IMG/VR virus record: IMGVR_UViG_3300042892_003674
Direction: 5' to 3' (one strand)
From: a virus
Lineage: Duplodnaviria; Heunggongvirae; Uroviricota; Caudoviricetes
DNA length: 15,930 nt
The first letter of the stretch is position 1; every line of letters begins with the position of its first letter. Under the pieces are notes generated by a model. The model was given only the letters and a program-made list of their open reading frames with translations, ran no database searches and was not told the DNA's origin. A program made the position numbers and the translations under genes. This document shows positions 1-15,930 of the stretch, in pieces.

Positions 1-3000
1 TAATACTATTAGGACCATTACCTAGTGCTTCATTTCCAATAACAATTTCATTTATAGTATTATTATTAAGTGAACTTGTAAATCTACCTATAAATATAGA
101 GTTATCTGCACCTGTTAAATCAATATTAGAAGTTCCATAATAAAGACCTGCCCACATACCTACTCCAATATTATTACTACCTACTCCAATATTACCCAGT
201 GCGCCATATCCAAGTGCAGTATTCATATCTGCAGTAGCAATAGTACCTATACCTATTGAGAATCCACTTCCTCCAGAAGGTCCCAAACTCCAAGAGAATG
301 GACCTGGCACTGCATTAAATCTAGTAGTAGTACTTGTAAGTAAAACACCTCTTCTTTTTAATGTTACTGAACTAACTGTACCACCCGCACCAACAACGAT
401 TGTAGCAGTTGGATATTCACCTGCGTCATTACTAGGTGCAGACCAAAAAGTACCACCACCAGACCATTGTAACCTAACATCTGTGTATGTACCTGGTGTA
501 TAACCAGATCCAGGTGAGAATGTAGCAGATAGTGTAAGTATTCCAGTTGATGCACTTGATAATGCGTAGCCTCCAAGTCCAACACTCCAAAATCCGGTAT
601 AGTATCTCAATGATGAAATACCAACTGATGTATTACGATCTCCAATTGAATTATATTGTAATGAATTTTGACCAAGTGCAACACTACCATAAGCAGTTGT
701 ATTTGAAAACAACGAATTTTGACCAAGTGCAATATTATTATTACCTGTTGTATTATTATGTAATGATTGTAAACCAAGTGCAGTATTCAAAGAACCAGTT
801 GAATTATTACGTAATGAGTATTGTCCAATTGCAATATTATTATTACCTGTTGTATTATTATATAATGACAATATACCAATTGCAGTATTTTGATAACCAT
901 TTGTATTAAAATATAATGATAGATAACCAAGTGCGACATTTTGATAACCCGTTGAATTAGTATATAATGAATTAAAACCAAGTGCAATATTATTATTACC
1001 TATTGTATTTGAATATAATGATTGATAACCAATTGCAGTATTATAAACTCCACCTGTATTTGAATATAATGATCGGTAACCAACTGCAGTATTGGCAAAA
1101 CCTGTCGTGTTAAAAAGTGATTGATAACCAATTGCTGTATTATTAGAACCAAGTGTATTAAACTTTAATGTTTCGTGTCCAATTGCAGTATTATAATTAC
1201 CAGTTGTATTTAATTCTAATGCGCTAGTTCCAACTGCAACACTACCATCAATTGAGATTAAAGATATAATACCTATTTCAAATCCCGCACCAGTGCCACC
1301 GAGATCACCATTATTTACTGTAAAAACTGTTGTAGTATCTAAAAAACCTGATCCCGGTGTTGTTAGTTCTACATAAGTAATAACTCCACTACCATCGACT
1401 TCTATATACACGGTAGGAGCGGATGTAAAGGTACTACTACCAGATAACCATTGTAATTCAACATCATAATACTCACCACCAACATATCCACTACCTGGAG
1501 TAAAACCAGTTGTATCTAGTACTACACCAGATGATTGACTATATAATGCAAAATCCCCTATTGCAACATTACTACCACCAATTGAATTTGACTGTAATGA
1601 ATTATAACCAACTGCGGTATTACGAGAACCAATTCTATTGTTAAATAATGAACTTAATCCAACTGCGGTATTACGAGAACCAGTTGTATTATAAAAAATT
1701 GAAGTATGACCAATTGCAGTATTTTGAGAACCGGTTGTATTACTAAATAAAGTATTAGAACCAATTGCAGTATTGGTAACACCTGTTGAATTAGTATATA
1801 ATGCAGCATAACCATTTGCGGTATTATCACGTCCTGTTATATTTGTAAGTAATGCTTGAACACCAATTGCAGTATTATTATACCCAGTTGTATTTGAATA
1901 TAATGATGACCAACCAACTGCAGTATTATAGAAACCAACTGTATTTGAATATAATGATGCCCAACCAACTGCAGTATTATAGAAACCAGTTGTATTAGAA
2001 TATAGTGACGCATAACCATTTGCAGTATTATTATAACCCGTTGTGTTTAAATATAATGCAAGTGCTGCATTTGCGGTATTTTGATAACCCGTTGAATTAG
2101 TATATAATGCAGCATAACCATTTGCAGTATTCAAATATCCAATTGTGTTTGAATATAATGCGGCATAACCATTTGCAGTATTATTATAACCCGTTGTATT
2201 AAAAGCCAATGATACATAACCAATTGCAGTATTATTATAACCCGTTGTGTTTGAAAATAATGAGATTGCACCAACCGCTGTATTATAACTAGCAGTTGCA
2301 CTAGTTCCTAATGAATTACGACCAATTGCAGTATTATAATCACCAGTTGTATTTGATCCCAATGTTGCGTAACCAATTGCGGTATTAGAAGTGCTGGAAA
2401 TATTAGCAAGTAATGCTTGATATCCAAATACAGTATTACCTTTTCCTCTTGAATCATTATAAACATTTCCATAATTATCGGCTATTAAAGAAACTGTCCC
2501 AGCGGTTGATGAAACAACAAATCTACCATCTGCGGCAGTACCAGTACCTATATTTACATAACCAGTTCTATAAATATTTGATGTTGTATCATATGCATAG
2601 TTAGTAGTTCCTTCTAAATAAAAAGATGATGTTCCACCTATTCCTGATGGGCCTGTCGCACCTGTAGTACCAGATGTACCTGAAGAACCACTAGAACCAG
2701 ATGTACCTGAAGAACCAGACTTACCACTTGAACCGGAACTTCCAGATGTACCTGAAGAACCACTAGAACCAGATGTACCAGAAGAACCACTAGAACCAGA
2801 ACTTCCAGATGTACCTGAAGAACCACTAGAACCAGATGTACCCGAAGAACCACTTGAGCCGGAACTTCCAGATGTACCTGAAGAACCACTTGAGCCGGAA
2901 CTTCCAGATGTACCTGAAGAACCAGATGTACCATCAACACCATTTACCCCAGATAAACCTGATGTACCAGAAGAACCTGAACTACCAGATGTACCTGAAG

Positions 3001-5524
3001 AACCAGATGTACCAGAAGAACCAGACTTACCACTTGAGCCGGAACTTCCAGATGAACCAGAACTACCAGATGTACCTGAAGAACCACTAGAACCAGATGT
3101 ACCTGAAGAACCAGATGATCCACTAGAACCAGAAGTACCTGAACTTCCAGAAGAACCAGATGAACCAGAAGTGCCCGAACTTCCAGATGATCCACTAGAA
3201 CCAGATGTACCAGAAGAACCAGATGTACCAGATGAACCAGAACTACCAGATGTACCTGAAGAACCAGATGTACCAGAAGAACCAGACTTACCACTTGAGC
3301 CGGAACTTCCAGATGAACCAGAACTACCAGATGTACCTGAAGAACCACTAGAACCAGACGTACCAGAAGAACCAGATGTACCACTAGAACCAGATGAACC
3401 AGAAGTACCCGAACTTCCAGATGATCCACTAGAACCACTAGAACCAGAACTACCAGATGTACCTGAAGAACCAGATGATCCACTAGAACCAGACTTACCA
3501 CTTGAACCGGAACTTCCAGATGAACCAGAAGAGCCAGATGTACCACTAGAACCAGAAGTTCCACTACTACCAGACGAACCAGAAGAACCAGAAGTGCCCG
3601 AACTTCCAGATGATCCACTAGAACCAGATGTACCAGAAGAACCTGAAGAACCACTAGAACCAGAAGTTCCACTACTACCAGAAGAACCAGATGTACCACT
3701 ACTACCAGAAGAACCAGATGTACCACTACTACCAGAGCTACCAGATGAACCAGAACTACCAGATGTACCTGAAGAACCACTAGAACCAGAAGTTCCACTA
3801 CTACCAGAAGAACCAGATGAACCAGAACTACCAGAACTACCAGAACTACCAGAAGTACCTGAGGAACCACTAGAACCAGAAGTTCCACTTGTTCCTGATG
3901 CACCATTTACACCATTTATACCACTAGTTCCGGATGAACCACTACTTCCAGATGTACCAGAGCTACCTGAAGAACCACTAGAACCAGATGTACCAGAACT
4001 TCCAGATTTACCAGAAGAACCAGAAGAACCACTAGAACCAGATGTACCTGAACTTCCAGAGCTTCCAGATGTACCAGAGCTACCAGAAGTACCAGAGCTA
4101 CCAGAAGTACCAGAGCTACCAGATGAACCGGAACTTCCAGAGCTACCAGAAGAACCAGATGTACCAGAGCTACCAGAAGTACCTGAACTTCCAGAAGAAC
4201 CAGATGAGCCACTAGAACCAGAAGAACCAGATGAGCCACTAGAACCAGAAGAACCACTAGAACCAGATGTACCTGAACTTCCAGAGCTTCCAGATGTACC
4301 AGAGCTACCAGAAGTACCAGAGCTACCAGAAGTACCAGAGCTACCAGATGAACCGGAACTTCCAGAGCTACCAGAAGAACCAGATGTACCAGAGCTACCA
4401 GAAGTACCTGAACTTCCAGAAGAACCAGATGAGCCACTAGAACCAGAAGAACCACTAGAACCAGATGTACCTGAACTTCCAGAGCTTCCAGATGTACCTG
4501 AACTTCCAGATGTACCTGAACTTCCAGATGAACCGGAACTTCCAGAGCTACCAGAAGTACCTGAACTTCCAGAAGAACCAGATGTACCTGAACTTCCAGA
4601 TGAACCGGAACTTCCAGAGCTACCAGAAGAACCAGATGTACCAGAGCTACCAGAAGTACCTGAACTTCCAGACGAACCAGATGTACCTGAACTTCCAGAT
4701 GAGCCGGAACTTCCAGAGCTACCAGAAGTACCTGAACTTCCAGAAGAACCAGATGTACCTGAACTTCCAGAAGAACCAGATGTACCTGAACTTCCAGATG
4801 AACCAGATGTACCTGAACTTCCAGATGAGCCGGAACTTCCAGAGCTACCAGACGAACCAGATGTACCAGAAGAACCAGATGTACCACTACTACCAGACGT
4901 ACCAGAAGAACCAGAGCTACCAGAAGTACCTGAACTTCCAGAAGAACCAGAGCTACCAGAAGAACCAGATGAACCAGAGCTACCAGAAGTACCTGAACTT
5001 CCAGAAGTACCAGAGCTACCAGAAGTACCTGAACTTCCAGATGAACCGGAACTTCCAGAGCTACCAGAAGAACCAGATGTACCAGAAGAACCAGATGTAC
5101 CACTACTACCAGACGTACCAGACGAACCAGATGAACCACTTGATCCAGAAGAACCACTGCTACCAGATGTACCGGAACTACCAGAAGAACCTGAAGTTCC
5201 ACTTACACCAGTTGCTATCCAGTTAGTACCTGTACTTTCTACATATAAAATTTGATATTGTGTAAGAGTCCTTGTTGTAACTCCGTCTATTGTTTGTGAA
5301 GATGTTGTAGCAACGGTTATTGTACCAGATCCACTATTTTTGATAAAATATATTTTTCCTGCCACACCAACAGCAGTTGGTAATGTAACAGTAAAAGTTC
5401 CACTTGTACAGTCAATTGTTTGATCATCTACACCTATTGGATAGGTTGTAGTAACTGCCTTATATGGGAATGTAATTCCACCTAAGGATATAAGTCCTTT
5501 TCGTAGTATAAACTCGTTTGCCAT
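1..5524 (-). CDS. Giant fibre-like protein, 3'-partial (>=1841 aa): N-terminal beta-sandwich, about 858-aa Gly-Ser/Thr collagen-like repeat, 17-aa NTAxG beta-helical repeats with two GSGY-type insertions
   Basis: Not in the ORF track because no stop falls inside the window. ATG at 5524-5522 translates MANEFILRKGLISLGGITFPYKAVTTTYPIGVDDQTIDCTSGTFTVTLPTAVGVAGKIYFIKNSGSGTITVATTSSQTIDGVTTRTLTQYQILYVESTGTNWIATG, then (GSS/GTS)n. I read the non-repeat parts (5524-5210 and 2640-2) codon by codon without an in-frame stop. The repeat was spot-checked and has the same frame and Gly register at both ends. The last residues in the window are ...NSIFIGRFTSSLNNNTINEIVIGNEALGNGPNSI. The 'TVTLP..G..Y.IKN.G.GTITV....QTIDG....L.......V.S.G.NW' segment resembles beta-domains of phage long tail fibres (recognised by eye). 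Confidence 0.92.
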   Translation of the reverse strand, partial: MANEFILRKGLISLGGITFPYKAVTTTYPIGVDDQTIDCTSGTFTVTLPTAVGVAGKIYFIKNSGSGTITVATTSSQTIDGVTTRTLTQYQILYVESTGTNWIATGVSGTSGSSGSSGTSGSSGSSGSSGSSGSSGTSGSSGTSGSSGTSGSSGSSGSSGSSGSSGTSGSSGTSGSSGTSGSSGSSGSSGSSGSSGSSGTSGSSGSSGTSGSSGTSGSSGTSGSSGSSGSSGSSGSSGTSGSSGSSGTSGSSGSSGTSGSSGSSGTSGSSGSSGSSGSSGTSGSSGSSGTSGSSGTSGSSGSSGSSGSSGSSGTSGSSGSSGTSGSSGSSGSSGSSGTSGSSGTSGSSGSSGTSGSSGSSGSSGSSGSSGSSGTSGSSGTSGSSGSSGSSGSSGSSGTSGSSGTSGSSGTSGSSGSSGTSGSSGSSGSSGSSGSSGSSGSSGSSGSSGTSGSSGTSGSSGSSGSSGSSGSSGTSGSSGTSGSSGTSGSSGSSGTSGSSGSSGSSGKSGSSGTSGSSGSSGSSGTSGSSGSSGTSGINGVNGASGTSGTSGSSGSSGTSGSSGSSGSSGSSGSSGSSGTSGSSGSSGTSGSSGSSGSSGSSGTSGSSGSSGTSGSSGSSGTSGSSGSSGSSGTSGSSGSSGSSGTSGSSGSSGSSGTSGSSGTSGSSGSSGSSGSSGKSGSSGSSGSSGTSGSSGSSGSSGSSGSSGTSGSSGSSGTSGSSGTSGSSGSSGTSGSSGSSGSSGSSGKSGSSGTSGSSGTSGSSGSSGTSGSSGTSGSSGSSGSSGTSGSSGSSGSSGTSGSSGSSGSSGTSGSSGSSGTSGSSGSSGSSGSSGKSGSSGTSGSSGTSGSSGSSGTSGLSGVNGVDGTSGSSGTSGSSGSSGSSGTSGSSGSSGSSGTSGSSGSSGTSGSSGSSGSSGTSGSSGSSGTSGSSGSSGKSGSSGTSGSSGSSGTSGTTGATGPSGIGGTSSFYLEGTTNYAYDTTSNIYRTGYVNIGTGTAADGRFVVSSTAGTVSLIADNYGNVYNDSRGKGNTVFGYQALLANISSTSNTAIGYATLGSNTTGDYNTAIGRNSLGTSATASYNTAVGAISLFSNTTGYNNTAIGYVSLAFNTTGYNNTANGYAALYSNTIGYLNTANGYAALYTNSTGYQNTANAALALYLNTTGYNNTANGYASLYSNTTGFYNTAVGWASLYSNTVGFYNTAVGWSSLYSNTTGYNNTAIGVQALLTNITGRDNTANGYAALYTNSTGVTNTAIGSNTLFSNTTGSQNTAIGHTSIFYNTTGSRNTAVGLSSLFNNRIGSRNTAVGYNSLQSNSIGGSNVAIGDFALYSQSSGVVLDTTGFTPGSGYVGGEYYDVELQWLSGSSTFTSAPTVYIEVDGSGVITYVELTTPGSGFLDTTTVFTVNNGDLGGTGAGFEIGIISLISIDGSVAVGTSALELNTTGNYNTAIGHETLKFNTLGSNNTAIGYQSLFNTTGFANTAVGYRSLYSNTGGVYNTAIGYQSLYSNTIGNNNIALGFNSLYTNSTGYQNVALGYLSLYFNTNGYQNTAIGILSLYNNTTGNNNIAIGQYSLRNNSTGSLNTALGLQSLHNNTTGNNNIALGQNSLFSNTTAYGSVALGQNSLQYNSIGDRNTSVGISSLRYYTGFWSVGLGGYALSSASTGILTLSATFSPGSGYTPGTYTDVRLQWSGGGTFWSAPSNDAGEYPTATIVVGAGGTVSSVTLKRRGVLLTSTTTRFNAVPGPFSWSLGPSGGSGFSIGIGTIATADMNTALGYGALGNIGVGSNNIGVGMWAGLYYGTSNIDLTGADNSIFIGRFTSSLNNNTINEIVIGNEALGNGPNSI
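170..2437 (-). repeat. 17-aa (51-nt) coding repeats, consensus N-T-A-[IVN]-G-x-x-[SA]-L-x-x-N-T-T-G-x-x; probable beta-helix/beta-roll shaft
   Basis: Manual translation gives 18 units at ~1520-2437 (e.g. NTAIGYVSLAFNTTGYN, NTANGYAALYSNTIGYL, NTAVGWSSLYSNTTGYN), 14 units at ~542-1243, and about 2 degenerate units below 223. Exact DNA copies include a 35-mer at 1785-1819 = 2091-2125 (offset 6x51) and a 32-mer at 938-969 = 2078-2109. Confidence 0.88.
2636..5209 (-). repeat. Coding Gly-X-Y tandem array (9-nt period, 286 triplets, X/Y mostly Ser/Thr)
   Basis: Gly codons at 5207, 5108, 3965, 3902, 3542, 3128 and 2642 all fall at position = 5 mod 9. The only non-S/T residues seen are GVS at the start, five Lys (GKS), GINGVNGAS (~3893-3922), GLSGVNGVD (~2930-2959) and terminal GATGPSGIG. 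Confidence 0.93.
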
Positions 5525-5931: not shown

Positions 5932-8900
5932 CTACAAGGTTGTTAGATTTATACATTCAACATCTGTTAATTGTTTTTTCCACAGTGCAATCATTTCAAA
6001 TTTTGCAGTTGCATTTTCGGTTAAACTACCAAAATCGAATTTATCTAAAGTAGCAGTAAAATCAGTTGATGATGGATATGTATAGTTCCAAAATAATACT
6101 CCATTAATAAAAACTTTTATAGATGTTTGTGAATACTTGATAATTATGTTTTTATTTGTTTGTAAATTAGGTGATACAACACTTGAATTACTAACACTTA
6201 TGTTATTTTTTCTTACACCATATTCACATCGACCATCAACACCAACACAAAAAATAGAAATTTGATTATTAGTTGATAAACTATTACTTATTCTTAATAT
6301 AACACCTCTTTGTAATTGATATCCTTTAACTAAAATAGTTCCCTCTGTTTGTCCTATTAAACTAGTGGCACTAGTTTTAGAAATAACATCAGCATTTCTT
6401 GTTACCGCAGCAGTTGTTGTTGGGATGTACGAGGTTTCATTGGTAAACAACGGAGTTCCTAATTCTAATTGTGCACCCCATGCATCAAAATCAACAACTT
6501 CACCATTTGCTAGAAATCCTATTTCACTATTAGAACTCCCAGCAGAACTACCAGTTGTAAAAATAACAATAACCCTATACCAACCATTACCGTAATCACT
6601 TAGTAAACTACTAATAATAGTTGGTCTTCCAGTTGTAATTGTACCAGTTGGGGTTGTTGTGATTGTTAAGTTAGTTAAATTAACTACTCCCCTATATTCA
6701 CCATTATTCGGTGAACTAACATTGTTATTATAGTAAAAGCTAAAGGTTTTATTATTGGTTGTTACACTTTTTTTAACAAATACCGATGCTGTATAGGTAG
6801 TGGAACTTGCAAGATTTAAACCTAATCTTCTCCAATATCCGTTAATGTTAGTTATGTTTATATTGTTAGCCGTTGGAATACCATTTGGCCCTATACTTAC
6901 ATTTGGTGTGACGGTCGTATTTAAACCACCAGTCCATAAATTTATTTGTTCTGACTGAATAACTAAATTAGTTCTTTGTGGCTCAACTAATATACTTGGA
7001 CAACTTCCATTTGAATAATCTATTCTTGGTACGTTTTGTCTGTTTGTTGTTGGAAAATAGTCTTTTGGTTGTGTTCCTTGAACCAATTGTGCACCCCATA
7101 CTAGAATACCCGATGTTCCATCTCCTGTGTAATTATCTGTTGTTGCTGATTGTCTTACTACAATAAGATAACTAAGGTTTTGCCCACCCCCTAAATTTGC
7201 TGTGTAAATAGAACATCTATACCAACCGTTGCCTACATTCTCAATACTTGGTGTAAATCCTGATGATGTGCCTGAAATAGTACCATTAGAAAGATTGAAA
7301 TAAATACTTCCACCACTAACACCTCCACCAACACCAAATGATAAAAAATTGTACCCATCTGCTTTTGCATATACTGACAAAACACCTTGACCTGAAAAAT
7401 TAAACTGTTGGAAAATTCTATGCTGATTTAATGTTGTATCTGGAATTATTTTATCTGCTGTTAAAGTTCCTATAGGAGAATTTGCCACATTTGTAGATAT
7501 TGATAATATGTTTTGTCTAGCCCAAAGTCCAGTATTGTCAAACTCTTCACTTCTTTGAAATAAATTATAAGGTACTTGTTCAATAAATCCCTCAGCATTT
7601 ACTCTTGTTGCAGTAGTTGCTCTTGTAACAACCATATCTCCATTTAATTCAAAGGGTACTACACTATAAAGTTTACCTTCTTTATATGTATTTGCAGTCA
7701 CCATCAAAGAAGCACTTTCTAATAAATATTGATTACTAATAACATTTAATTGTCCTTCTAAGCAACTTTCTGCCTCAAATAAACCTAAGTCCTCTAATAC
7801 TCTTGATTTAAAAACATTCTTGATCTCGGTTGTTGATGGTGTATATCTTGATTTAGATGCAGTATATATTGTTGAAATCTCTGTTGCAGTTAAAACTCTG
7901 TTATATATTGCTACCTGACCTATATTTCCTTTGAATGGTTCAGTTCCTGTATTAGTCCAACCTCCTAATCTAAAATTATTATCAGTAGTTGTTTTTTGTT
8001 GACCGGCATCTGTTCGTTGAGATTGCAAACTACCATTTAAGTAAATCAACATCGTTGTATTACCACCTGAAAATGATGAAACAAAACTCATAAAATACCA
8101 AACATTATTAGCTAAATTTGGTGTTGCAAATAAACTTCGTTGAACCCCACCTATGCTATTTGAAAAATGAATATCTCCATTACTTCTAAACGCAAAATAA
8201 GGTAAATACATACCCATAATCATATTATAAGCGTTTATAGATTGTGTTCTTTTAACCCATACAGTCCAAGTGGTACTAGACGGTAGAGTATTAAAAGAAG
8301 TAGTCACTACATCATTTACTCCATCAAAAGAAAACGCTCTTTGACCATCACTAACAAGAGCAACACCATTATTTAATGTACCATTATTGTTATTACCACT
8401 CATATCATATGCAGTACTTGCAGTTGCAACCTGTTTGTCTGTGTTACTACCATCTAATGATAAAGCTAAAGAATCTGTTGGTATAAATCGTTGAAGACCA
8501 GCGTAGTAGTTTTGTAAGATTTCTTGTTCAGTAAGAGATCTGTTGTAGATTTGGGTTGTATAAAATTCTCCCTGAAAGTAAGCAGCGGTGTTATTTCTAG
8601 GTATTGCATGTCCTATAGTATAAAGACTATCTGTTCTTAAAACTACATTAACGGTATTTGTAGATTGTAATATATTATTAAGATAAACTTTACTTTCTTT
8701 ATTATATCTATTTACTACAACACAAACGGGATTACCAGTCATAGTGTTCCCGATACTTTGTTGGTTTACAAGAGCAATACCTCCTATCCATACTCCTCCA
8801 CTCCAAATTAGTATGGTTGGTTGTGAGCTGTATCCACTTGAAAAATAATAATGAGTTTTATTTGATAAAGTTTTAAACCACAGTACAATACAGAAATCAT

Positions 8901-9432
8901 CAGTTATTAAACCAGGTGTACCTAAAGTCACGTAATCATCCACACCATCAAAAACAATACTTCCACCTCCGGAAGTACTAAACGAAGGACCATTCACTAA
9001 TGTTCCATTATTTCCATTACCACTTAAATCTGTCCAAGTAGTTCCATTCTTTGGATATGAAGGTGTATAAGCAGCATCTAAATTTAGAACTAATCCACTT
9101 GTTACAATATTTGGATAATCCATATTAGTACAAAGCATTGTGCTTGATGAGTTAAAGAAATTTAAAGCCCCAGAAATTGTTGTAATTCCACTACCTCCTA
9201 ATTGATTAGACAATGTAATTAAATTTGCATCATTACCCGCTACAAAAACTGATGGACTTCCTACACCATTACTAACATATACTGTATAACCACCAACATT
9301 AGGAGTTTTACCATTATAGAAATTAGTGATGTTAGTTGGTCCGTATCCACCATTATTTACACCAATTGCAAAGTTTGATGTTTTAATAGAATTTGACTGA
9401 GTTGCATTAGTATATTTAATTGGATTTGCCAT
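5932..9432 (-). CDS. Multidomain virion lectin-like protein (1166 aa): N-terminal domain, 2 LamG/ConA-like domains, 2 carbohydrate-binding-module-like repeats, C-terminal degenerate ConA-like domain
   Basis: Long ORF, ATG to TAG. LamG-type motifs 'IVTSGLVLNLDAA...W.DLSGNGNNGTLVNGP...FDGVDDY' and 'IYNRSLTEQEILQNY', with a second copy ending 'IYNRVLTATEISTIY'. The C-terminal half has two 'NL...SE......GNGWYR....WGAQL..G....(Y/F)PT' units, typical of beta-sandwich CBM-like modules of phage spike/fibre proteins (by eye). Confidence 0.9.
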   Translation of the reverse strand: MANPIKYTNATQSNSIKTSNFAIGVNNGGYGPTNITNFYNGKTPNVGGYTVYVSNGVGSPSVFVAGNDANLITLSNQLGGSGITTISGALNFFNSSSTMLCTNMDYPNIVTSGLVLNLDAAYTPSYPKNGTTWTDLSGNGNNGTLVNGPSFSTSGGGSIVFDGVDDYVTLGTPGLITDDFCIVLWFKTLSNKTHYYFSSGYSSQPTILIWSGGVWIGGIALVNQQSIGNTMTGNPVCVVVNRYNKESKVYLNNILQSTNTVNVVLRTDSLYTIGHAIPRNNTAAYFQGEFYTTQIYNRSLTEQEILQNYYAGLQRFIPTDSLALSLDGSNTDKQVATASTAYDMSGNNNNGTLNNGVALVSDGQRAFSFDGVNDVVTTSFNTLPSSTTWTVWVKRTQSINAYNMIMGMYLPYFAFRSNGDIHFSNSIGGVQRSLFATPNLANNVWYFMSFVSSFSGGNTTMLIYLNGSLQSQRTDAGQQKTTTDNNFRLGGWTNTGTEPFKGNIGQVAIYNRVLTATEISTIYTASKSRYTPSTTEIKNVFKSRVLEDLGLFEAESCLEGQLNVISNQYLLESASLMVTANTYKEGKLYSVVPFELNGDMVVTRATTATRVNAEGFIEQVPYNLFQRSEEFDNTGLWARQNILSISTNVANSPIGTLTADKIIPDTTLNQHRIFQQFNFSGQGVLSVYAKADGYNFLSFGVGGGVSGGSIYFNLSNGTISGTSSGFTPSIENVGNGWYRCSIYTANLGGGQNLSYLIVVRQSATTDNYTGDGTSGILVWGAQLVQGTQPKDYFPTTNRQNVPRIDYSNGSCPSILVEPQRTNLVIQSEQINLWTGGLNTTVTPNVSIGPNGIPTANNINITNINGYWRRLGLNLASSTTYTASVFVKKSVTTNNKTFSFYYNNNVSSPNNGEYRGVVNLTNLTITTTPTGTITTGRPTIISSLLSDYGNGWYRVIVIFTTGSSAGSSNSEIGFLANGEVVDFDAWGAQLELGTPLFTNETSYIPTTTAAVTRNADVISKTSATSLIGQTEGTILVKGYQLQRGVILRISNSLSTNNQISIFCVGVDGRCEYGVRKNNISVSNSSVVSPNLQTNKNIIIKYSQTSIKVFINGVLFWNYTYPSSTDFTATLDKFDFGSLTENATAKFEMIALWKKQLTDVECINLTTL

Positions 9433-9451
9433 AACTTATATATTATAATCC
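9430..9451 (-). promoter_or_regulatory. Conserved stop-spacer-start junction motif, copy 1
   Basis: GGATTA-TAA-TATATAAGTT-ATG; matches the copies at 11113-11134 and 13526-13547. Confidence 0.6.
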
Positions 9452-11059
9452 GTATCTTGCTCTTGTTGCGTTATATATTATCGAGATCTCAGTTTGACTT
9501 AGTGATCTATTATAAAAGAATACTTCTGAAATATTACCATTAAATGGATAATCTCCGTTACCATAAGCACCTATTGTTACGTTACCTGTTGAAACGTCTA
9601 AAGGTATAGAATATGCGTTGGAATTTTCTTGTGTTTCGTTAATATATAATATTTTATTAACCTGATTATATGTTAATGTTATAAGATACCATTTACCCAA
9701 TATCAAGTCAGTTGTACCAGAGACTAAAATACCATTGATTCTGTGTTGTATTCTTCTACCACTTTGCCATATCTCAAATGGTCCAATTCCATTGTTACTA
9801 TTATTATTTTTCATAAAAATCTCTTTCACTGCGGATATCGACAGATTAACCCAAAATCCAGCACTAAATTGGTTAGTATTAAAGGTAGAACTATTACCAC
9901 AATTAATATAATCATTTACTCCATCAAATCTCCAAGAACCATCTGCACTTCCAACATATTGAGTTCCATTTAATAGTACTCCATTATTAGCATTACCACT
10001 AATATCATAAGCAGTTGTAGGTGATGTGGCATATAAATTAGTATTTTGTGCATCCAGTGAAAGAACTAAACCATTGGTTGGTATAAATCTTTGAAGACCT
10101 GCATAGTAATTTTGTAGTATTTCTGTTGCTGAAAGAGCCCTATTATAATACATAAATCGTTGAATATTTCCAGGACCACCTGCGGATGAACATCTTAAAT
10201 TTGGTGTAATACTACCACTTCTATTCCAAGATGTTGCACCAACATCCCAGACTTCGGAATCTCTTAACACACCATCAATATAAGTTTTTACATTCCCTTG
10301 ACTATCAAATGTCAATGCGGTTTCATACCATTGATTGGGTAGATAAACATCGTACATTATATTTGCACCGGCATTAGAATAAATTAGCCAAGCATAAGTG
10401 TCAGTTGCCCAAACAGCGTTTCTATAAAAATAAATTAAATTATTTGTAGTTCCACCATCTCTAAAAAAAATAAGTTGAGTAGTGTTATTAAATGGTGGTG
10501 TTTTAAGTTTAATAATAAATGTACCATTTTGTGGTGATCCACTCGTAAATGTATTTATTGGTAAGGTGCAAACATCATCAACACCGTCAAATACAATACT
10601 CCCATAATTTGACGAATCAAAAGTTGGTCCATTAACTAAAGTAGAATTAATATTATTACCACTTAAATCATTCCATCCTGTCCCGCCTTTAGGATAAGAA
10701 GGTACAAATCCTGCATCCAAATTAATAGTAAGTCCCGAAGTCACGATTGAAGGATAGTTTGTATTAGCAACAGTCATATTACTCTGAGAATTGATCCACA
10801 CCAAAGCTTCTGCAACAGTTGAAACATTGCCTCCCAGAATTTTAGTTATATTAACTAAATCAGTATCGTTCTGTGGAGCATAAATTGATGGTCCATTTGA
10901 AGATTTATTGATATAGATGGTATATCCACCATTTATTGGACAGATACCGGTATAAAATTCGGTTAGATCCGCTGGTGTTGCATTGACTCCTATATTAAAC
11001 CCACCAGATTTAATTGAGTTTACTGACACGGGAGTGCTAAATTTTACTATGTTTCCCAT
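9443..11059 (-). CDS. Tandem LamG/ConA-like lectin domain protein (538 aa), paralog of the N-terminal half of the 1166-aa protein
   Basis: ATG to TAA. Shared N-terminal domain (MGNIVKF..NSIK..F.IGVN), two LamG-like domains ('GLTINLDAG...WNDLSGN', 'GLVLSLDAQ...YDISGN'), a junction EILQNYYAGLQRFIPT identical to the paralog, and C-terminus YNRSLSQTEISIIYNATRARYGL. Confidence 0.92.
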   Translation of the reverse strand: MGNIVKFSTPVSVNSIKSGGFNIGVNATPADLTEFYTGICPINGGYTIYINKSSNGPSIYAPQNDTDLVNITKILGGNVSTVAEALVWINSQSNMTVANTNYPSIVTSGLTINLDAGFVPSYPKGGTGWNDLSGNNINSTLVNGPTFDSSNYGSIVFDGVDDVCTLPINTFTSGSPQNGTFIIKLKTPPFNNTTQLIFFRDGGTTNNLIYFYRNAVWATDTYAWLIYSNAGANIMYDVYLPNQWYETALTFDSQGNVKTYIDGVLRDSEVWDVGATSWNRSGSITPNLRCSSAGGPGNIQRFMYYNRALSATEILQNYYAGLQRFIPTNGLVLSLDAQNTNLYATSPTTAYDISGNANNGVLLNGTQYVGSADGSWRFDGVNDYINCGNSSTFNTNQFSAGFWVNLSISAVKEIFMKNNNSNNGIGPFEIWQSGRRIQHRINGILVSGTTDLILGKWYLITLTYNQVNKILYINETQENSNAYSIPLDVSTGNVTIGAYGNGDYPFNGNISEVFFYNRSLSQTEISIIYNATRARYGL

Positions 11060-11115
11060 TAAAAATATATTTTTTTGGATGTAAATTGTATAGATGTAGT
11101 ATATTTAATTGACAT
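11059..11115 (-). CDS. Unannotated 18-aa mini-ORF (MSIKYTTSIQFTSKKIYF); vestigial gene or translational coupler
   Basis: ATG at 11115-11113 is preceded by the same 10-nt spacer motif as two real genes. Its TAA (11061-11059) overlaps the ATG of the 538-aa gene as TAATG. Confidence 0.5.
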   Translation of the reverse strand: MSIKYTTSIQFTSKKIYF

Positions 11116-11134
11116 AGTTTATATATTATATTCC
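11113..11134 (-). promoter_or_regulatory. Conserved stop-spacer-start junction motif, copy 2
   Basis: GGAATA-TAA-TATATAAACT-ATG (ATG of the 18-aa mini-ORF). Confidence 0.55.
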
Positions 11135-11830
11135 GAATCTTGATCTGGTTGCATTGAAGTTTTTTAGTACTTCTGTTGCAGAGAGTGCTCTATTGTATAT
11201 TTGAACATTTGCTATATTACCACTCCAATATTGTCCACTAGTACCCCATTGGTAAATACTCCCACCAATATTTATACCATCTGTTCTATTTTGATTTATT
11301 GATGCGTCTATCCAAGTTGTAGTATTAACCAAAATACTATTTCTATAAAAATAATATTTATTGTCTATATGATTCCAGACTAAAAATATGTTTACAAAAT
11401 CATTTATGTTTACAAAAAAATTAGTAATTGAGGGTATTGGACCATTTGTATGTCCACCACCACTATTCCAATATACAAAATCTAAAGATGTATTTTTTTG
11501 CATTATTTGCCACTCCCAATTAGATGGACCTTTTCCAATAAAGGGAAAATGAGCGGCTAATGAATTTGGTCTAACATATAAAGAAATTGAAACACTATTT
11601 GTGTTGTTCCAACTTAAATCATAACCTGTTGAATAATAATCATTAGTTCCATCAAACCCAATACTTCCCTTATTAGCAGAACTAAAACTAGGTCCATTTG
11701 TTAAAGTACCATTATTTCCTCTACCACTTCTATCAAACCAAGTCGTAGATCCGGACTGATATGATTTAGTATTAGCTGCATCTAAATGTAGAACTAATCC
11801 ATCTGTTATTATTGTTGGTCCTGTAAACAT
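11126..11830 (-). CDS. Single-domain LamG/ConA-like lectin protein (234 aa)
   Basis: MFTGPTIITDGLVLHLDAANTKSY...W.DRSGRGNNGTLTNGP...FDGTNDY ... IYNRALSATEVLKNFNATRSRFGI. ATG to TAA, 3 nt after the upstream stop. Confidence 0.92.
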   Translation of the reverse strand: MFTGPTIITDGLVLHLDAANTKSYQSGSTTWFDRSGRGNNGTLTNGPSFSSANKGSIGFDGTNDYYSTGYDLSWNNTNSVSISLYVRPNSLAAHFPFIGKGPSNWEWQIMQKNTSLDFVYWNSGGGHTNGPIPSITNFFVNINDFVNIFLVWNHIDNKYYFYRNSILVNTTTWIDASINQNRTDGINIGGSIYQWGTSGQYWSGNIANVQIYNRALSATEVLKNFNATRSRFGI

Positions 11831-11833
11831 ATT

Positions 11834-12571
11834 TTATAAATTAAATCTTGATTTTGTGGCATTATAATTTTGTAAGACTTCTTGTGCGGTTAGTACCCTG
11901 TTATATTTTTTAAATATTGAAAAATTTCCATTTATTGAAAAAGAACTATTACCTATCCAACCATCTCCATAAAAATATAATGAACCTATTCCTAAAGGTA
12001 AGTTTGCATTACCTACACTTGTAACACCTCCAGTAATATTATGTGATATAATATTTTGATTTAAACCACCATCAGTATAGTAACCCAATTGAGTTGATGT
12101 GGCCCAAACAACTAGTTGGTGTGTATTTCCATCAGCTATAGAAAATCCTACTGTGGCAGAGGTTGTCCCACTAGTACCTGCTAATAGTGAAAATCCTGTT
12201 GGTGTTACTGAAATATTATATTGACCACTTCCATTCCATGGTTTTGAAATTAATCTACCTACAGTATCACTAGTCTTGACCCATAATTCTATACACAGAA
12301 TAGAACTTCCAATACTACCATCAGCAGTCCAGGCATGTATATTATTCGTCCCACCTCCAGAAAGGATTACATAGTCATTCACTCCATCGAAAGCAATACT
12401 TCCTCCATTTAAAGAATTGAAAGTAGGTCCATTTGTTAAAGTACCATTATATCCATTACCACTTCTATCATACCAAGTACTTCCTGTACCAGAATATGAT
12501 TTAACATTTCCTGCATCTAAATGAAGAACTAATCCACTTGTAACTATACTTGGTCCTCCTAATGTACCCAT
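11834..12571 (-). CDS. Single-domain LamG/ConA-like lectin protein (245 aa)
   Basis: GPSIVTSGLVLHLDAGNVKSY...WYDRSGNGYNGTLTNGP...FDGVNDY ... YNRVLTAQEVLQNYNATKSRFNL. ATG lies 1 nt after the upstream stop. Confidence 0.92.
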   Translation of the reverse strand: MGTLGGPSIVTSGLVLHLDAGNVKSYSGTGSTWYDRSGNGYNGTLTNGPTFNSLNGGSIAFDGVNDYVILSGGGTNNIHAWTADGSIGSSILCIELWVKTSDTVGRLISKPWNGSGQYNISVTPTGFSLLAGTSGTTSATVGFSIADGNTHQLVVWATSTQLGYYTDGGLNQNIISHNITGGVTSVGNANLPLGIGSLYFYGDGWIGNSSFSINGNFSIFKKYNRVLTAQEVLQNYNATKSRFNL

Positions 12572-12572
12572 A

Positions 12573-12836
12573 TTATATTTCTTCGATTGATGAAGTCCAC
12601 TCTTCTGTTGATAAAATAATTATTATTTCATCATATGTATAAGGACCTTCCTTAGTTATTAGTGATGATACACACTCTGGTTCATTTCCATCCCATTTAA
12701 CGAATGTTTTTGTTTCATCAGTAGATTTTCTAACAGTTTCTGCAGATGTCTCTAATACCTGTGTAAAATCGATTTGTGATAATTCTGATACATTAAATAT
12801 CATAAAGTTTCTGTTTTCGTAATTTTGTGTTTCCAT
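12573..12836 (-). CDS. Small acidic hypothetical protein (87 aa) embedded in the lectin gene array
   Basis: ATG to TAA ORF METQNYENRNFMIFNVSELSQIDF...EEWTSSIEEI. Glu/Thr-rich and tightly packed between two LamG genes. Confidence 0.85.
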   Translation of the reverse strand: METQNYENRNFMIFNVSELSQIDFTQVLETSAETVRKSTDETKTFVKWDGNEPECVSSLITKEGPYTYDEIIIILSTEEWTSSIEEI

Positions 12837-12853
12837 ATATTTATATTATTTTT

Positions 12854-13528
12854 TTACAATCCATACCTTGATTTTATGGCATTAAAGTTCTGTAATACTT
12901 CTGTTGCAGAGAGTGCTCTATTGTATCCTTGTACACTTGCTATTCTGCCATTAAAAGGAAATTGACCGGTTGCTCTTTGTCCTATTCGAGCTGTTGAATT
13001 CCAACCACCTACTGTAAATGCTTGTGTAGAAGATGCTACTTCAAATACTCCATTTACGTATATAGAGGTTACATTGTTGTTAACAATTCCTGTAATATGA
13101 TACCATTTATTTGCTTCTATGTTAGTATTACTAATAATTGAAAAATTATTCACGTCGGATGTTTGGGTTGCGAATAGTTGAATTCTATTGTTTGATAAAG
13201 AAAGCCAATTGTCTTGTCCATTTGCTGATGGACCGTATATTACTTGGGTACCTGTTACAATGGATGTATTTACAAAAGCACATATAGTTAAAGGATTTGT
13301 TAAATTTATAATAGTACTTATATCGACATAGTCATTCACACCATCAAATCCAATACTTCCCATATTAGCAGAACTAAAACTAGGTCCATTTGTTAAAGTA
13401 CCATTATTTCTATTACCACTCAAATCACTCCAAGTTGCACCTGTTCCAGTATATGACTTTGGATTAGCAGCATCTAAATGAAGAATTAATCCACTTGTTA
13501 CAATTTGAGGTCCTCTATAAAATCCCAT
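12854..13528 (-). CDS. Single-domain LamG/ConA-like lectin protein (224 aa)
   Basis: MGFYRGPQIVTSGLILHLDAANPKSY...WSDLSGNRNNGTLTNGP...FDGVNDY ... YNRALSATEVLQNFNAIKSRYGL. ATG to TAA. Confidence 0.92.
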   Translation of the reverse strand: MGFYRGPQIVTSGLILHLDAANPKSYTGTGATWSDLSGNRNNGTLTNGPSFSSANMGSIGFDGVNDYVDISTIINLTNPLTICAFVNTSIVTGTQVIYGPSANGQDNWLSLSNNRIQLFATQTSDVNNFSIISNTNIEANKWYHITGIVNNNVTSIYVNGVFEVASSTQAFTVGGWNSTARIGQRATGQFPFNGRIASVQGYNRALSATEVLQNFNAIKSRYGL

Positions 13529-13547
13529 AATTTATATATTATATTAC
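13526..13547 (-). promoter_or_regulatory. Conserved stop-spacer-start junction motif, copy 3
   Basis: GTAATA-TAA-TATATAAATT-ATG. Confidence 0.6.
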
Positions 13548-15930
13548 TCTCGTACCGACTTTTACTTTCCAAGTACCAGTTGTTATTGTTGCTCTTAATC
13601 TAATATCTGTGCCTGAAATATCTACACTAAACTCTATACCAGCAGTTGATGCTACTAAATCAGTTGTCGATGTATCCGTGTAAGCTACTGTAGATCCATT
13701 AGTAACGGACATTACTGTTCCTGCTCTATATGCACCAGTTATTGAATTACTTACATAATAATCAAAGAATACTCCTGTTGATGATGTTACACCATAAGGT
13801 ATAGTCATAACTGTACTTGTTGTTGCTAATCCGGATACATTTGCACTATTCATATAAAGATCACCCGCGATAGTAACTATCTCATCAGTATTTACTGTTA
13901 AAATAGGAGTACCAGAAATATCACTAACTTGAAATACATCACCGATTAAAGTATCTGTAACAGAGAACAACTGACCTGATGCTCCTAATATATTAAAGGC
14001 TGTTCCTGTTGCACCTAGTACAGTACCTATCTCTAACTTATTACCATTAAAGGTTAAGTTACTATTCGCTAGAGCCGATGTAGTTGATGACCCTGTTGCA
14101 GTTAGTATTCTATAGTCTGCTGGAGTTATAATTGCATTAAAACCTGTCCCTGATGTTCCACTTGTACCAGATGAACCAGAACTACCAGATGTACCAGATG
14201 AACCAGAGCTACCAGATGAACCACTAGAACCTGAACTTCCAGAAGAACCAGAAGTACCAGAGCTACCAGACGAACCAGAAGAACCAGAAGTACCAGAAGA
14301 ACCAGATGTACCAGAACTACCAGACGAACCAGATGTACCAGAACTACCAGATGAACCACTAGAACCTGAACTTCCAGAAGAACCAGATGTACCAGACGAA
14401 CCAGAAGAACCAGATGAACCACTTGTACCAGATGAACCTGAACTACCAGATGAACCTGAACTACCAGATGTACCACTAGAACCAGATGTACCAGAACTAC
14501 CAGATGAACCACTAGAACCTGAACTTCCAGAAGAACCAGATGTACCACTTGTACCAGATGAACCAGAACTACCAGATGTACCAGATGAACCACTTGTACC
14601 AGATGTACCAGATGAACCACTTGTACCAGATGAACCAGAACTACCAGATGAACCCGAAGTACCAGAAGAACCACTTGTACCAGATGAACCAGAAGAACCA
14701 GAGCTACCAGATGAACCAGAAGAACCACTTGTACCAGATGAACCACTAGAACCAGAGCTACCAGAACTACCAGATGAGCCTGAACTTCCAGATGTACCAG
14801 AGCTACCAGATGAACCAGAGCTACCAGATGAACCAGAGCTACCAGATGAACCACTTGTACCAGATGAACCAGAACTACCAGATGTACCTGAACTACCAGA
14901 TGAACCCGAAGTACCAGAAGAACCACTTGTACCAGATGAACCAGAAGAACCAGAGCTACCAGATGAACCAGAAGAACCACTTGTACCAGATGAACCACTA
15001 GAACCAGAGCTACCAGAACTACCAGATGAGCCTGAACTTCCAGATGTACCAGAGCTACCAGATGAACCAGAGCTACCAGATGAACCAGAGCTACCAGATG
15101 AACCACTTGTACCAGATGAACCAGAACTACCAGATGAACCAGATGATCCAGAAGAACCAGATGTACCTGAACTACCAGAAGTACCTGAACTACCAGATGA
15201 ACCAGATGTACCTGAACTACCTGAACTTCCAGATGACCCAGAAGAACCAGAAGTACCTGAACTACCAGATGTACCAGAAGAACCAGATTTACCTGAACTA
15301 CCAGAGCTACCAGAACTACCAGATGAGCCACTAGAACCTGAACTACCAGATGTACCAGAAGAACCAGATGTACCAGATGAGCCGCTAGAACCAGAACTAC
15401 CAGAAGTTCCACTAGAACCAGAAGTACCTGAACTACCAGAAGTTCCACTAGAACCAGAAGTACCAGAGCTACCAGAAGAACCAGAACTTCCAGACGAACC
15501 AGATGAGCCACTAGAACCAGAAGTACCAGAGCTACCAGATGAACCACTAGTACCAGACGAACCACTAGAGCCTGAACTTCCAGAAGAACCACTAGAACCT
15601 GAACTTCCAGACGAACCAGATGTACCAGACGAACCAGATGTACCAGATGAGCCGCTAGAACCAGAACTACCAGATGAACCACTAGAACCAGAAGTACCAG
15701 AAGAACCAGATGTACCAGACGAACCAGAAGTACCTGAACTACCAGATGAGCCACTAGAACCAGATGAACCTGAACTTCCAGATGTACCAGATGAACCACT
15801 AGAACCAGATGAACCTGAACTTCCAGATGTACCAGATGAACCACTAGAACCAGATGAACCTGAACTTCCAGATGTACCAGATGAACCACTAGAACCTGAA
15901 CTTCCAGAAGAACCAGATGTACCAGACGAA
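13539..15930 (-). CDS. Second Gly-Ser/Thr repeat fibre-like protein, 5'-partial (>=796 aa), with C-terminal beta-rich domain
   Basis: The track's 143-aa ORF (TTG at 13970) is only the tail. The frame stays open upstream as (GSS/GTS)n-GTGFNAIITPADYRILTATGSSTTSALANSNLTFNGNKLEIGTVLGATGTAFNILGASGQLFSVTDTL...RAGTVMSVTNGSTVAYTDTSTTD...TWKVKVGTRVI*. The same frame and Gly register hold at 14148 and 15921. Confidence 0.92.
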   Translation of the reverse strand, partial: SSGTSGSSGSSGSSGSSGTSGSSGSSGSSGSSGTSGSSGSSGSSGSSGTSGSSGSSGSSGSSGSSGTSGSSGTSGSSGTSGSSGSSGSSGSSGSSGTSGSSGTSGSSGSSGSSGSSGSSGSSGSSGTSGSSGSSGTSGSSGSSGSSGSSGSSGSSGTSGSSGTSGSSGTSGSSGTSGSSGSSGSSGTSGSSGTSGSSGSSGSSGSSGSSGSSGKSGSSGTSGSSGTSGSSGSSGSSGSSGTSGSSGSSGTSGSSGTSGSSGSSGSSGSSGSSGTSGSSGSSGSSGSSGSSGSSGTSGSSGSSGSSGSSGSSGSSGTSGSSGSSGSSGSSGSSGTSGSSGTSGSSGSSGTSGSSGSSGTSGSSGSSGSSGSSGSSGSSGTSGSSGSSGSSGSSGSSGSSGTSGSSGSSGSSGSSGSSGTSGSSGTSGSSGSSGSSGTSGSSGTSGTSGSSGTSGSSGSSGTSGTSGSSGSSGSSGSSGSSGTSGSSGTSGSSGSSGSSGSSGTSGSSGSSGSSGTSGSSGSSGSSGSSGSSGTSGSSGSSGTSGSSGTSGSSGSSGSSGTSGSSGSSGSSGSSGSSGSSGTSGSSGSSGTSGTSGTGFNAIITPADYRILTATGSSTTSALANSNLTFNGNKLEIGTVLGATGTAFNILGASGQLFSVTDTLIGDVFQVSDISGTPILTVNTDEIVTIAGDLYMNSANVSGLATTSTVMTIPYGVTSSTGVFFDYYVSNSITGAYRAGTVMSVTNGSTVAYTDTSTTDLVASTAGIEFSVDISGTDIRLRATITTGTWKVKVGTRVI
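14142..15930 (-). repeat. Coding Gly-X-Y tandem array (>=198 triplets), containing a 252-nt-period near-tandem duplication and 3 x 45-nt tandem copies
   Basis: Gly codons at 14148, 14166, 15903 and 15921 are all at position = 0 mod 9. 14638-14884 is identical to 14890-15136. A perfect 45-nt unit starts at 15751, 15796 and 15841. Confidence 0.92.

Follow-up and report, generated by a model that had tools for sequence, protein, structure and literature searches.

Collagen-like Gly-X-Y tracts have been known in phage fibres since 1998 (Smith et al. 1998, as cited in PMC1079782), and collagen-like proteins have also been described in Escherichia coli prophages (PMC3368898). For the cyanophage P-SSM2, Gly-X-Y repeats with Pro, Ser or Thr were noted by the authors (PMC1079782); in its orf28, which we examined, Pro and Asp abound and the two longest runs comprise 35 and 23 triplets. 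Here, we analyze a 15,930-nucleotide stretch of Caudoviricetes DNA (IMG/VR record IMGVR_UViG_3300042892_003674; the whole stretch is referred to as the window), in which two genes, A and B, encode giant Gly-X-Y tracts built almost entirely of G-S-S and G-T-S triplets. Gene A resembles the known phage collagen fibres in having a Gly-X-Y shaft between attachment and distal binding domains, with variable shaft length and, probably also for gene A, trimeric fibres as common traits, but the known tracts are short, at tens of triplets, whereas the tract of gene A runs to 287. With moderate confidence, we interpret this tract as a homotrimeric collagen-like shaft of ~250 nm that would do without stabilization by Pro or charge.

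Bacterial proteins provide further points of comparison. Burkholderia Bucl3, which has been described in silico only, carries 38–63 GTS/GSS triplets, and other Burkholderia proteins contain GTS repeats (Bachert et al. 2015, PMC4565658); in the Burkholderia genomes that we scanned, runs of 52–88 G-T-S triplets were found. Bucl3 shares with the gene A tract a composition of nearly all GTS and GSS without Pro or charge, but it is a cellular protein with unrelated flanks, and its 38–63 triplets compare with 287 here and up to 843 among the relatives listed. In Bucl8, a (GAS)19 segment gave a weak triple-helix signal in circular dichroism (CD) at 25 °C that was lost at 50 °C (PMC7682875). This repeat is likewise Pro-free, uncharged, of a single Gly-X-Ser triplet type and anchored on a trimeric domain, but it spans 6–38 triplets, has Ala at X and belongs to an outer-membrane efflux protein (PMC7682875). 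Such published Pro-free, uncharged GTS/GSS and GAS repeats (PMC4565658, PMC7682875) correct the premise of the original prediction, a model's reading of the sequence alone, that collagen-like helices are normally stabilized by Pro and charged pairs. Lastly, BclA of Bacillus anthracis (PDB 1wck) has a collagen-like stalk that is glycosylated on Thr, carries a hydroxyl residue at Y and is nucleated by a very stable C-terminal trimeric beta domain, a layout resembling that of gene B, but its triplets are GPT, with Pro at X.

The gene A tract consists of consecutive in-register triplets, of which 194 are GSS, 77 GTS, 5 GKS and 11 others. Position X is occupied by S (194), T (78), K (5), V (4), I (2), A (2), L (1) and P (1), and position Y by S (280), N (3), T (2), D (1) and G (1), so that a single Pro, five Lys and one Asp are found among 574 X/Y positions. 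The original prediction had described this array as 286 triplets at 2636–5209, missing the final GTS only, and its residue counts (5 Lys, 1 Asp and 1 terminal Pro) are exact in our tally. It had also pointed out that the list of open reading frames skipped the gene, and this is correct: gene A is an open frame at 2..5524 on the minus strand with at least 1,841 codons, whose 3' end lies beyond the start of the window, so a listing without open-ended frames overlooks it. The tract scores 161 bits against the Pfam Collagen model PF01391 (cut-off 27.2). Gly occupies every third residue without interruption in both gene A (287 triplets) and gene B (at least 198), whereas the usual companions of this repeat, namely Pro at X, hydroxyproline (Hyp) or Thr at Y, and charge pairs, are missing from the gene A tract, in which a hydroxyl residue at Y is the sole usual collagen rule that is kept (Ser in 280 of 287 triplets). 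As a separate observation, neighboring GTS triplets are nearly absent from gene A (1 of 76 spacings; lag-1 autocorrelation −0.35), while GTSGTS is frequent in the related loci L007, L011 and L005.

A composition of this kind is typical of flexible linkers, and one alternative is therefore that the tract is an intrinsically disordered hydrophilic tether, a giant GS/GT linker or entropic spring between folded trimeric ends, whose period of three is mainly a legacy of 9-nt expansion. Such a tether would fit the lack of Pro, charge and hydrophobic residues, the predicted local distance difference test (pLDDT) score of ~35 that AlphaFold2 (AF2) assigns to the tract, and the offsets of the internal duplications in the gene A array, which are all multiples of 9 nt, so that slippage alone would keep the register. 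The codons argue against it. A swap between Gly and Ser takes a single transition that a linker would have no reason to forbid, yet none of the 485 Gly codons in the two arrays (GGT 388, GGA 73, GGC 21, GGG 3) is changed at position 1 or 2, compared with 97 synonymous variants. Ser is encoded by TCT, TCA, TCC, TCG, AGT and AGC, and although each of the 164 AGT codons lies one transition from GGT, Gly is found at X or Y only twice, both times at array ends. Position-specific preferences are likewise not expected of a linker: Thr is accepted at X and not at Y, with 78 versus 2 occurrences in gene A and ~47% versus ~5% across the 120 IMG/VR loci listed, and in relatives Y is similarly fixed (as Ser, Thr or Gln) while X varies. 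With no more than 37 nt of exact sequence in common, the arrays of genes A and B obey the same protein rule independently.

The same picture emerges from a survey of 29,071 distinct S/T-type triplets, drawn from 225 viral loci and the window. Across these many independent phages, short breaks that shift the register were found 75 times (0.26%), none of them in the window, and single Gly replacements that keep the register 87 times (Ala 33, Gln 31, Lys 7, Arg 6, Ser 4, Glu 3, Asp 3). Homologues thus do not freely tolerate register-breaking indels, and neither the Gly/Ser swaps nor the indels of any length that a flexible linker would allow are seen in the tract. Judged from these sequences, the Gly position is under strict purifying selection that goes beyond composition. 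The original prediction had taken the perfect Gly register to favor structure over a plain linker, and both the codon evidence and the rarity of breaks agree with that view. As more conventional collagen-like tracts also occupy the same place in homologous fibres, we regard a plain linker, which was among the options first proposed, as unlikely, albeit with an appreciable share of probability. One locus, L005:4692-9875, shows Ala recurring in register at the Gly position (GTSGTSATSGTS...), a natural Gly-to-Ala series that could serve to calibrate the tolerance of the fold.

A Gly-X-X periodicity is also compatible with polyproline-II (PPII) helices, and the original prediction had listed a polyglycine-II bundle of PPII strands among its options. 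Bundles of this type are known from the snow-flea antifreeze protein and from the adhesin tip gp38 of phage S16, and they are built from short PPII strands joined by regular turns in antiparallel packing. The tract shows no sign of such short strands with regularly spaced turns: its only periodicity is three residues, the pattern of GTS and GSS is without longer-range autocorrelation (|r| ≤0.12 at lags 2–39), and no turn or capping motifs occur in its 861 residues. In addition, the parallel and probably trimeric end domains favor a parallel arrangement. An antiparallel bundle is hence very improbable.

The domains that flank the tract in gene A point to a virion fibre. The N-terminal domain, whose start MANEF... 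is kept in homologues, was modelled by AF2 with a pLDDT of 89.6, and in Foldseek it resembles the anchor domains of trimeric tailspikes and baseplate proteins, specifically those of CBA120 TSP4, Acinetobacter phage Solidus gp83, the Pa223 capsid spike and T4 gp9 and gp10; by sequence, a search against solved structures returned chance-level matches only. Gene A hence shares an anchor fold of the TSP4, gp10 and gp9 types. The domain has 118 relatives in IMG/VR, and where it is N-terminal in these, a Gly-X-Y tract adjoins it. On the other side of the tract, 875 residues (967–1841) form repeats of ~15–17 residues with the motif 'NTAIGY..SL.SNTTG', which match PHROG families 23837, 6002 and 4636 (virion structural protein, tail spike) with E values down to 2.7e-119 and, in tblastn, the tail fibre and tailspike genes of isolated phages, with no match to solved structures by sequence. 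A megablast search of the flanking genes against isolated phages yielded no close relative. The 100-residue anchor-type domain is also found at the C-terminus of many proteins of 430–575 residues in other viral contigs (L012–L080, IMG/VR), which indicates a shuffled module that is used at either end of fibre and spike proteins.

Relatives of gene A show how this architecture is completed and varied. In locus L007, the same N-terminal domain is followed by 658 G-[S/T]-S triplets in a protein of 2,775 residues, and the same solenoid repeats follow the tract and lead to a C-terminal Peptidase_S74 domain (E 4.9e-8; 33.6 bits versus a cut-off of 22). Trimeric spikes and fibres of the endosialidase type are known to carry this domain, which is connected to gene A through the L007 homologue, the C-terminus of gene A itself lying outside the window. 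To our knowledge, neither the Peptidase_S74 nor the TSP4-type families have a giant Gly-X-Y shaft. L011 combines a gene A-type N-terminal domain with at least 241 G-[S/T]-S triplets, while the same domain precedes G-X-Thr tracts in L001 and L002, with E, T, F, A or Q at X, and G-X-Gln tracts with Pro, Asp and Lys in L006.

Gene B (13539..15929, minus strand) encodes at least 198 triplets (GSS 146, GTS 50) followed by a C-terminal domain of 200 residues. This domain has no Pfam or PHROG match, and a single-sequence search of IMG/VR with it found nothing; an alignment query did find homologues. These close giant G-X-Y tracts in L007/L084, L011/L087, L009/L082, L085 and LR756501, a 735-kb phage, and the tracts closed by this type of domain in orthologues measure 614, 569 plus 191, 49 and 63 triplets. 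When the last 20 triplets and the C-terminal domain were modelled in three copies, the ipSAE (interface score from predicted aligned errors) was 0.78, compared with 0.00 for the best of three controls; 20 of 30 solved homo-oligomer pairs attained that mark, as did 1 of 23 single chains. The partner pLDDT is at least 72, at least 58% of the contacts agree between runs, and residues 72–75 of the construct, directly after the tract, contact their own copies, which places them on the symmetry axis. The C-terminal domain of gene B is thus predicted to trimerize. As a monomer, it is modelled confidently by AF2 for the last ~100 residues only, with weak Foldseek matches to fibre and spike proteins of phages and nothing clearly C1q/TNF-like. 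The gene B array also holds an exact 247-nt duplication.

In the model that we favor, the gene A tract serves as the shaft of a homotrimeric fibre on the virion of a huge lake-water phage. Its three chains would run in parallel, with their register kept by a trimer-forming domain at each end, namely the N-terminal tailspike-type anchor and the C-terminal beta-solenoid, which is probably folded in a relative by the Peptidase_S74 intramolecular chaperone. Between them, the 287 triplets may wind into a collagen-type triple helix with Gly buried on the axis, Ser, a hydroxyl residue, fixed at Y, and Ser or Thr at the exposed X. In animal collagens, the Y position is the place of Hyp, and in bacterial collagens that of Thr. 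Stability would come from length, nucleation at the ends, hydration networks of Ser and Thr, a cold habitat and possibly glycosylation, instead of Pro and salt bridges. Prokaryotic collagens as a rule have a hydroxyl residue at Y, and hydration of Ser/Thr hydroxyls has been proposed to stabilize polar bacterial collagens (PMC8968730). At ~0.29 nm per residue, such a shaft might hold the distal binding domains ~250 nm off the particle and thereby enlarge its capture radius. The data themselves show the sequence, the order of domains, the selection on the register and how common the class is. What favors a triple helix is the combination of homologous architecture, trimer-forming flanks, purifying selection on the Gly register and the hydroxyl fixed at Y, and from these we infer the trimer stoichiometry, triple-helical conformation, length and function of the gene A fibre.

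Several points weigh against this interpretation. Pro and charge pairs, the usual stabilizers, are absent from the tract, and the monomer AF2 model is of low confidence there, as given above. The PDB holds no G-S-S or G-T-S helix, and its matches to the tract share only a Gly at every third residue; we know of no structure or biophysical measurement of any G-S-S or G-T-S sequence. As the 3' end of gene A lies off the window, its trimerization is deduced from the fold likeness of the N-terminal domain and from the Peptidase_S74 domain of the L007 homologue. In the gene B model, contacts are confident in the C-terminal domain only, save for tract residues 42 and 48. Expansion in 9-nt units keeps the register by itself, so that part of the regularity would be mutational and not selected. 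Finally, the CD peak of the Bucl8 repeat is weak, and its authors allow for a mixture of helix and coil (PMC7682875).

A variant of the triple helix deserves separate weighing, in which the helix forms only after O-glycosylation of Ser and Thr by phage-encoded glycosyltransferases, with the unmodified chain unfolded. Around two thirds of the residues could in principle be O-glycosylated, and each of two related contigs, G003 (the L001 contig) and G004 (the L128 contig, a complete 548-kb genome), carries 8–9 family-2 glycosyltransferase genes. A helix that depends on glycosylation has been proposed for BclA and is known for the cuticle collagen of Riftia. Glycosylation of BclA is, moreover, thought to aid hydration (PMC8968730), which also speaks for this variant. 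On the other hand, Pfam detected no glycosyltransferase in the window, and no such gene adjoins the fibre genes in the loci examined, while the unglycosylated (GAS)19 repeat produced in E. coli already gave a triple-helix signal (PMC7682875). The glycosyltransferases of the two contigs make glycosylation conceivable, but a helix that strictly depends on it is improbable. As such, of the non-canonical triple helix that was first suggested, perhaps stabilized by O-glycosylation, the helix has become the best-supported interpretation through architecture, trimer-type flanks, Gly selection and the hydroxyl at Y, whereas no sign of glycosylation was seen. The family-2 genes are partly clustered, for example at 366–370 kb of G004.

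A further alternative is that the array owes its length to repeat expansion during short-read metagenome assembly. Two facts would fit such an artefact: no independent contig crosses the tract, and an exact repeat of 214 nt, whose copies at 4016 and 4241 start 225 nt apart, is longer than a usual read. Specifically, the Logan contigs of four lake runs break inside the array, and the many apparent joints have sides of less than 30 nt and are uninformative. The 214-nt repeat is, however, the only exact internal repeat above short-read length in the gene A array, so a plausible error amounts to ~25 triplets in either direction and not to the whole array. Of the 2,507 77-mers in the tract, 2,318 are distinct, and Tandem Repeats Finder aligns its units with 65–70% matches, as is expected of well-diverged repeats. 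Both flanks and unique internal pieces were found at 100% identity in lake-water metagenomes of at least three separate studies, and the internal pieces recovered without differences include 2895–2977, 3249–3338, 3545–3679 and 3810–3957. Runs of 200–843 triplets also recur in independently assembled relatives. We therefore consider an assembly artefact extremely improbable; the expansion that the original prediction had named as its possible undoing accounts for at most one 225-nt unit. One freshwater metatranscriptome contained a fraction of 0.26 of the sampled words of window 1–2626, and two others less, which is not evidence of expression.

Table 1 Features of the window, with their coordinates and the evidence used
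Feature	Position	Strand	Basis
N-terminal all-beta anchor domain, gene A residues 1–105	5210..5524	-	AF2 and Foldseek, IMG/VR relatives
Gly-X-Y tract G-[S/T]-S, proposed triple-helical shaft, gene A residues 106–966	2627..5209	-	Translation, triplet counts, Pfam
'NTAIGY'-type beta-solenoid repeats with two inserted modules, gene A residues 967–1841, frame continuing past the window start	2..2626	-	PHROG, tblastn
Gene B array, at least 198 uninterrupted G-[S/T]-S triplets, 5' end past the window end	14142..15929	-	Translation, triplet counts
Gene B C-terminal 200-residue beta domain and stop codon, predicted trimeric knob	13539..14141	-	Homologues, three-copy model
Four Laminin_G_3 (ConA-like lectin) genes and a fifth, PHROG-only paralogue	5932..13528	-	Pfam PF13385, PHROG

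Between the two fibre genes lie five paralogous genes, all in the same orientation (Table 1). Four of them, at 5932–9432, 9443–11059, 11126–11830 and 12854–13528, match Pfam PF13385 (Laminin_G_3) with E values from 1e-14 to 4e-28, and the fifth, at 11834–12571, has no PF13385 match but shares PHROG families 24074 and 8510 with its Laminin_G_3 neighbors. The C-terminal half of the 1,166-residue gene of this group additionally matches a 'tail protein' PHROG. The position of these lectin-like genes between the fibre genes would fit an apparatus for host capture. At the nucleotide level, the window is AT-rich (~30–35% GC) save for 2500–5200 and 14000–15930, which have ~46% GC and a strong skew of A over T. 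Within the window alone, the two fibre genes together require ~970 Ser codons, of which ~950 lie in the arrays, mostly as TCT, AGT and TCA.

The tracts of the window are members of a larger class. A scan of IMG/VR returned at least 120 contigs with such tracts; 56 of the 120 listed carry at least 100 uninterrupted triplets, and the longest uninterrupted run among the matches listed comprises 843. Going by sequence, the G-[S/T]-S class is abundant in uncultured, mostly large, aquatic phages. The 735-kb huge phage LR756501, published and unannotated, gave at least 40 matching pieces in blastn; its region LR756501.1 96721–121709 (L348) contains runs of 89, 301 and 425 G-T-S triplets, spread over several genes, as well as a C-terminal domain of the gene B type. 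Our literature search found no paper on such tracts in phages, and the huge-phage paper nowhere mentions collagen or fibres. Some matches carry other labels. A pattern of (GGN WSN WSN)x20 also matches three IMG/VR contigs labelled GVMAG, as giant-virus metagenome-assembled genomes (MAGs; L109, L126 and L171), and three short contigs in freshwater bacterial MAGs of Betaproteobacteria, Rhodobacteraceae and Flavobacteriales (L240, L265 and L305) carry 248–323 uninterrupted S/T-type triplets; the latter are probably phage contigs that were mis-binned. A blastn match to Erwinia jumbo phages (H43) was rejected as it has no Gly-X-Y frame.

In relation to the systems described so far, what is new here is the setting in a phage fibre, the extreme uninterrupted length (287 triplets, and 301 and 425 in LR756501), the abundance in aquatic phages and the selection on the register at the codon level. 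A broader and more tentative proposal, to which we assign somewhat less than an even chance, is that G-[S/T]-S tracts constitute a widespread viral class of collagen that forms stable triple helices hundreds of nanometers long (~0.7 micrometre for 843 triplets) without Pro, Hyp or charge pairs, stabilized only by hydration of Ser and Thr hydroxyls or by glycosylation under the direction of the phage. If this proposal is true, it would add a third stabilization regime for the collagen fold and reveal hair-like capture fibres on huge phages. A triple-helical tract would also take the rules of collagen stability to an extreme, with neither imino acids nor salt bridges over nearly 900 residues, and would provide an uncharged rod that is simple, can be encoded genetically and is tunable in length. 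For the phages themselves, triple-helical tracts would mean that huge phages of lakes carry fibres several times the length of their tails, a matter of relevance to the way in which large and rare particles encounter hosts in dilute water.

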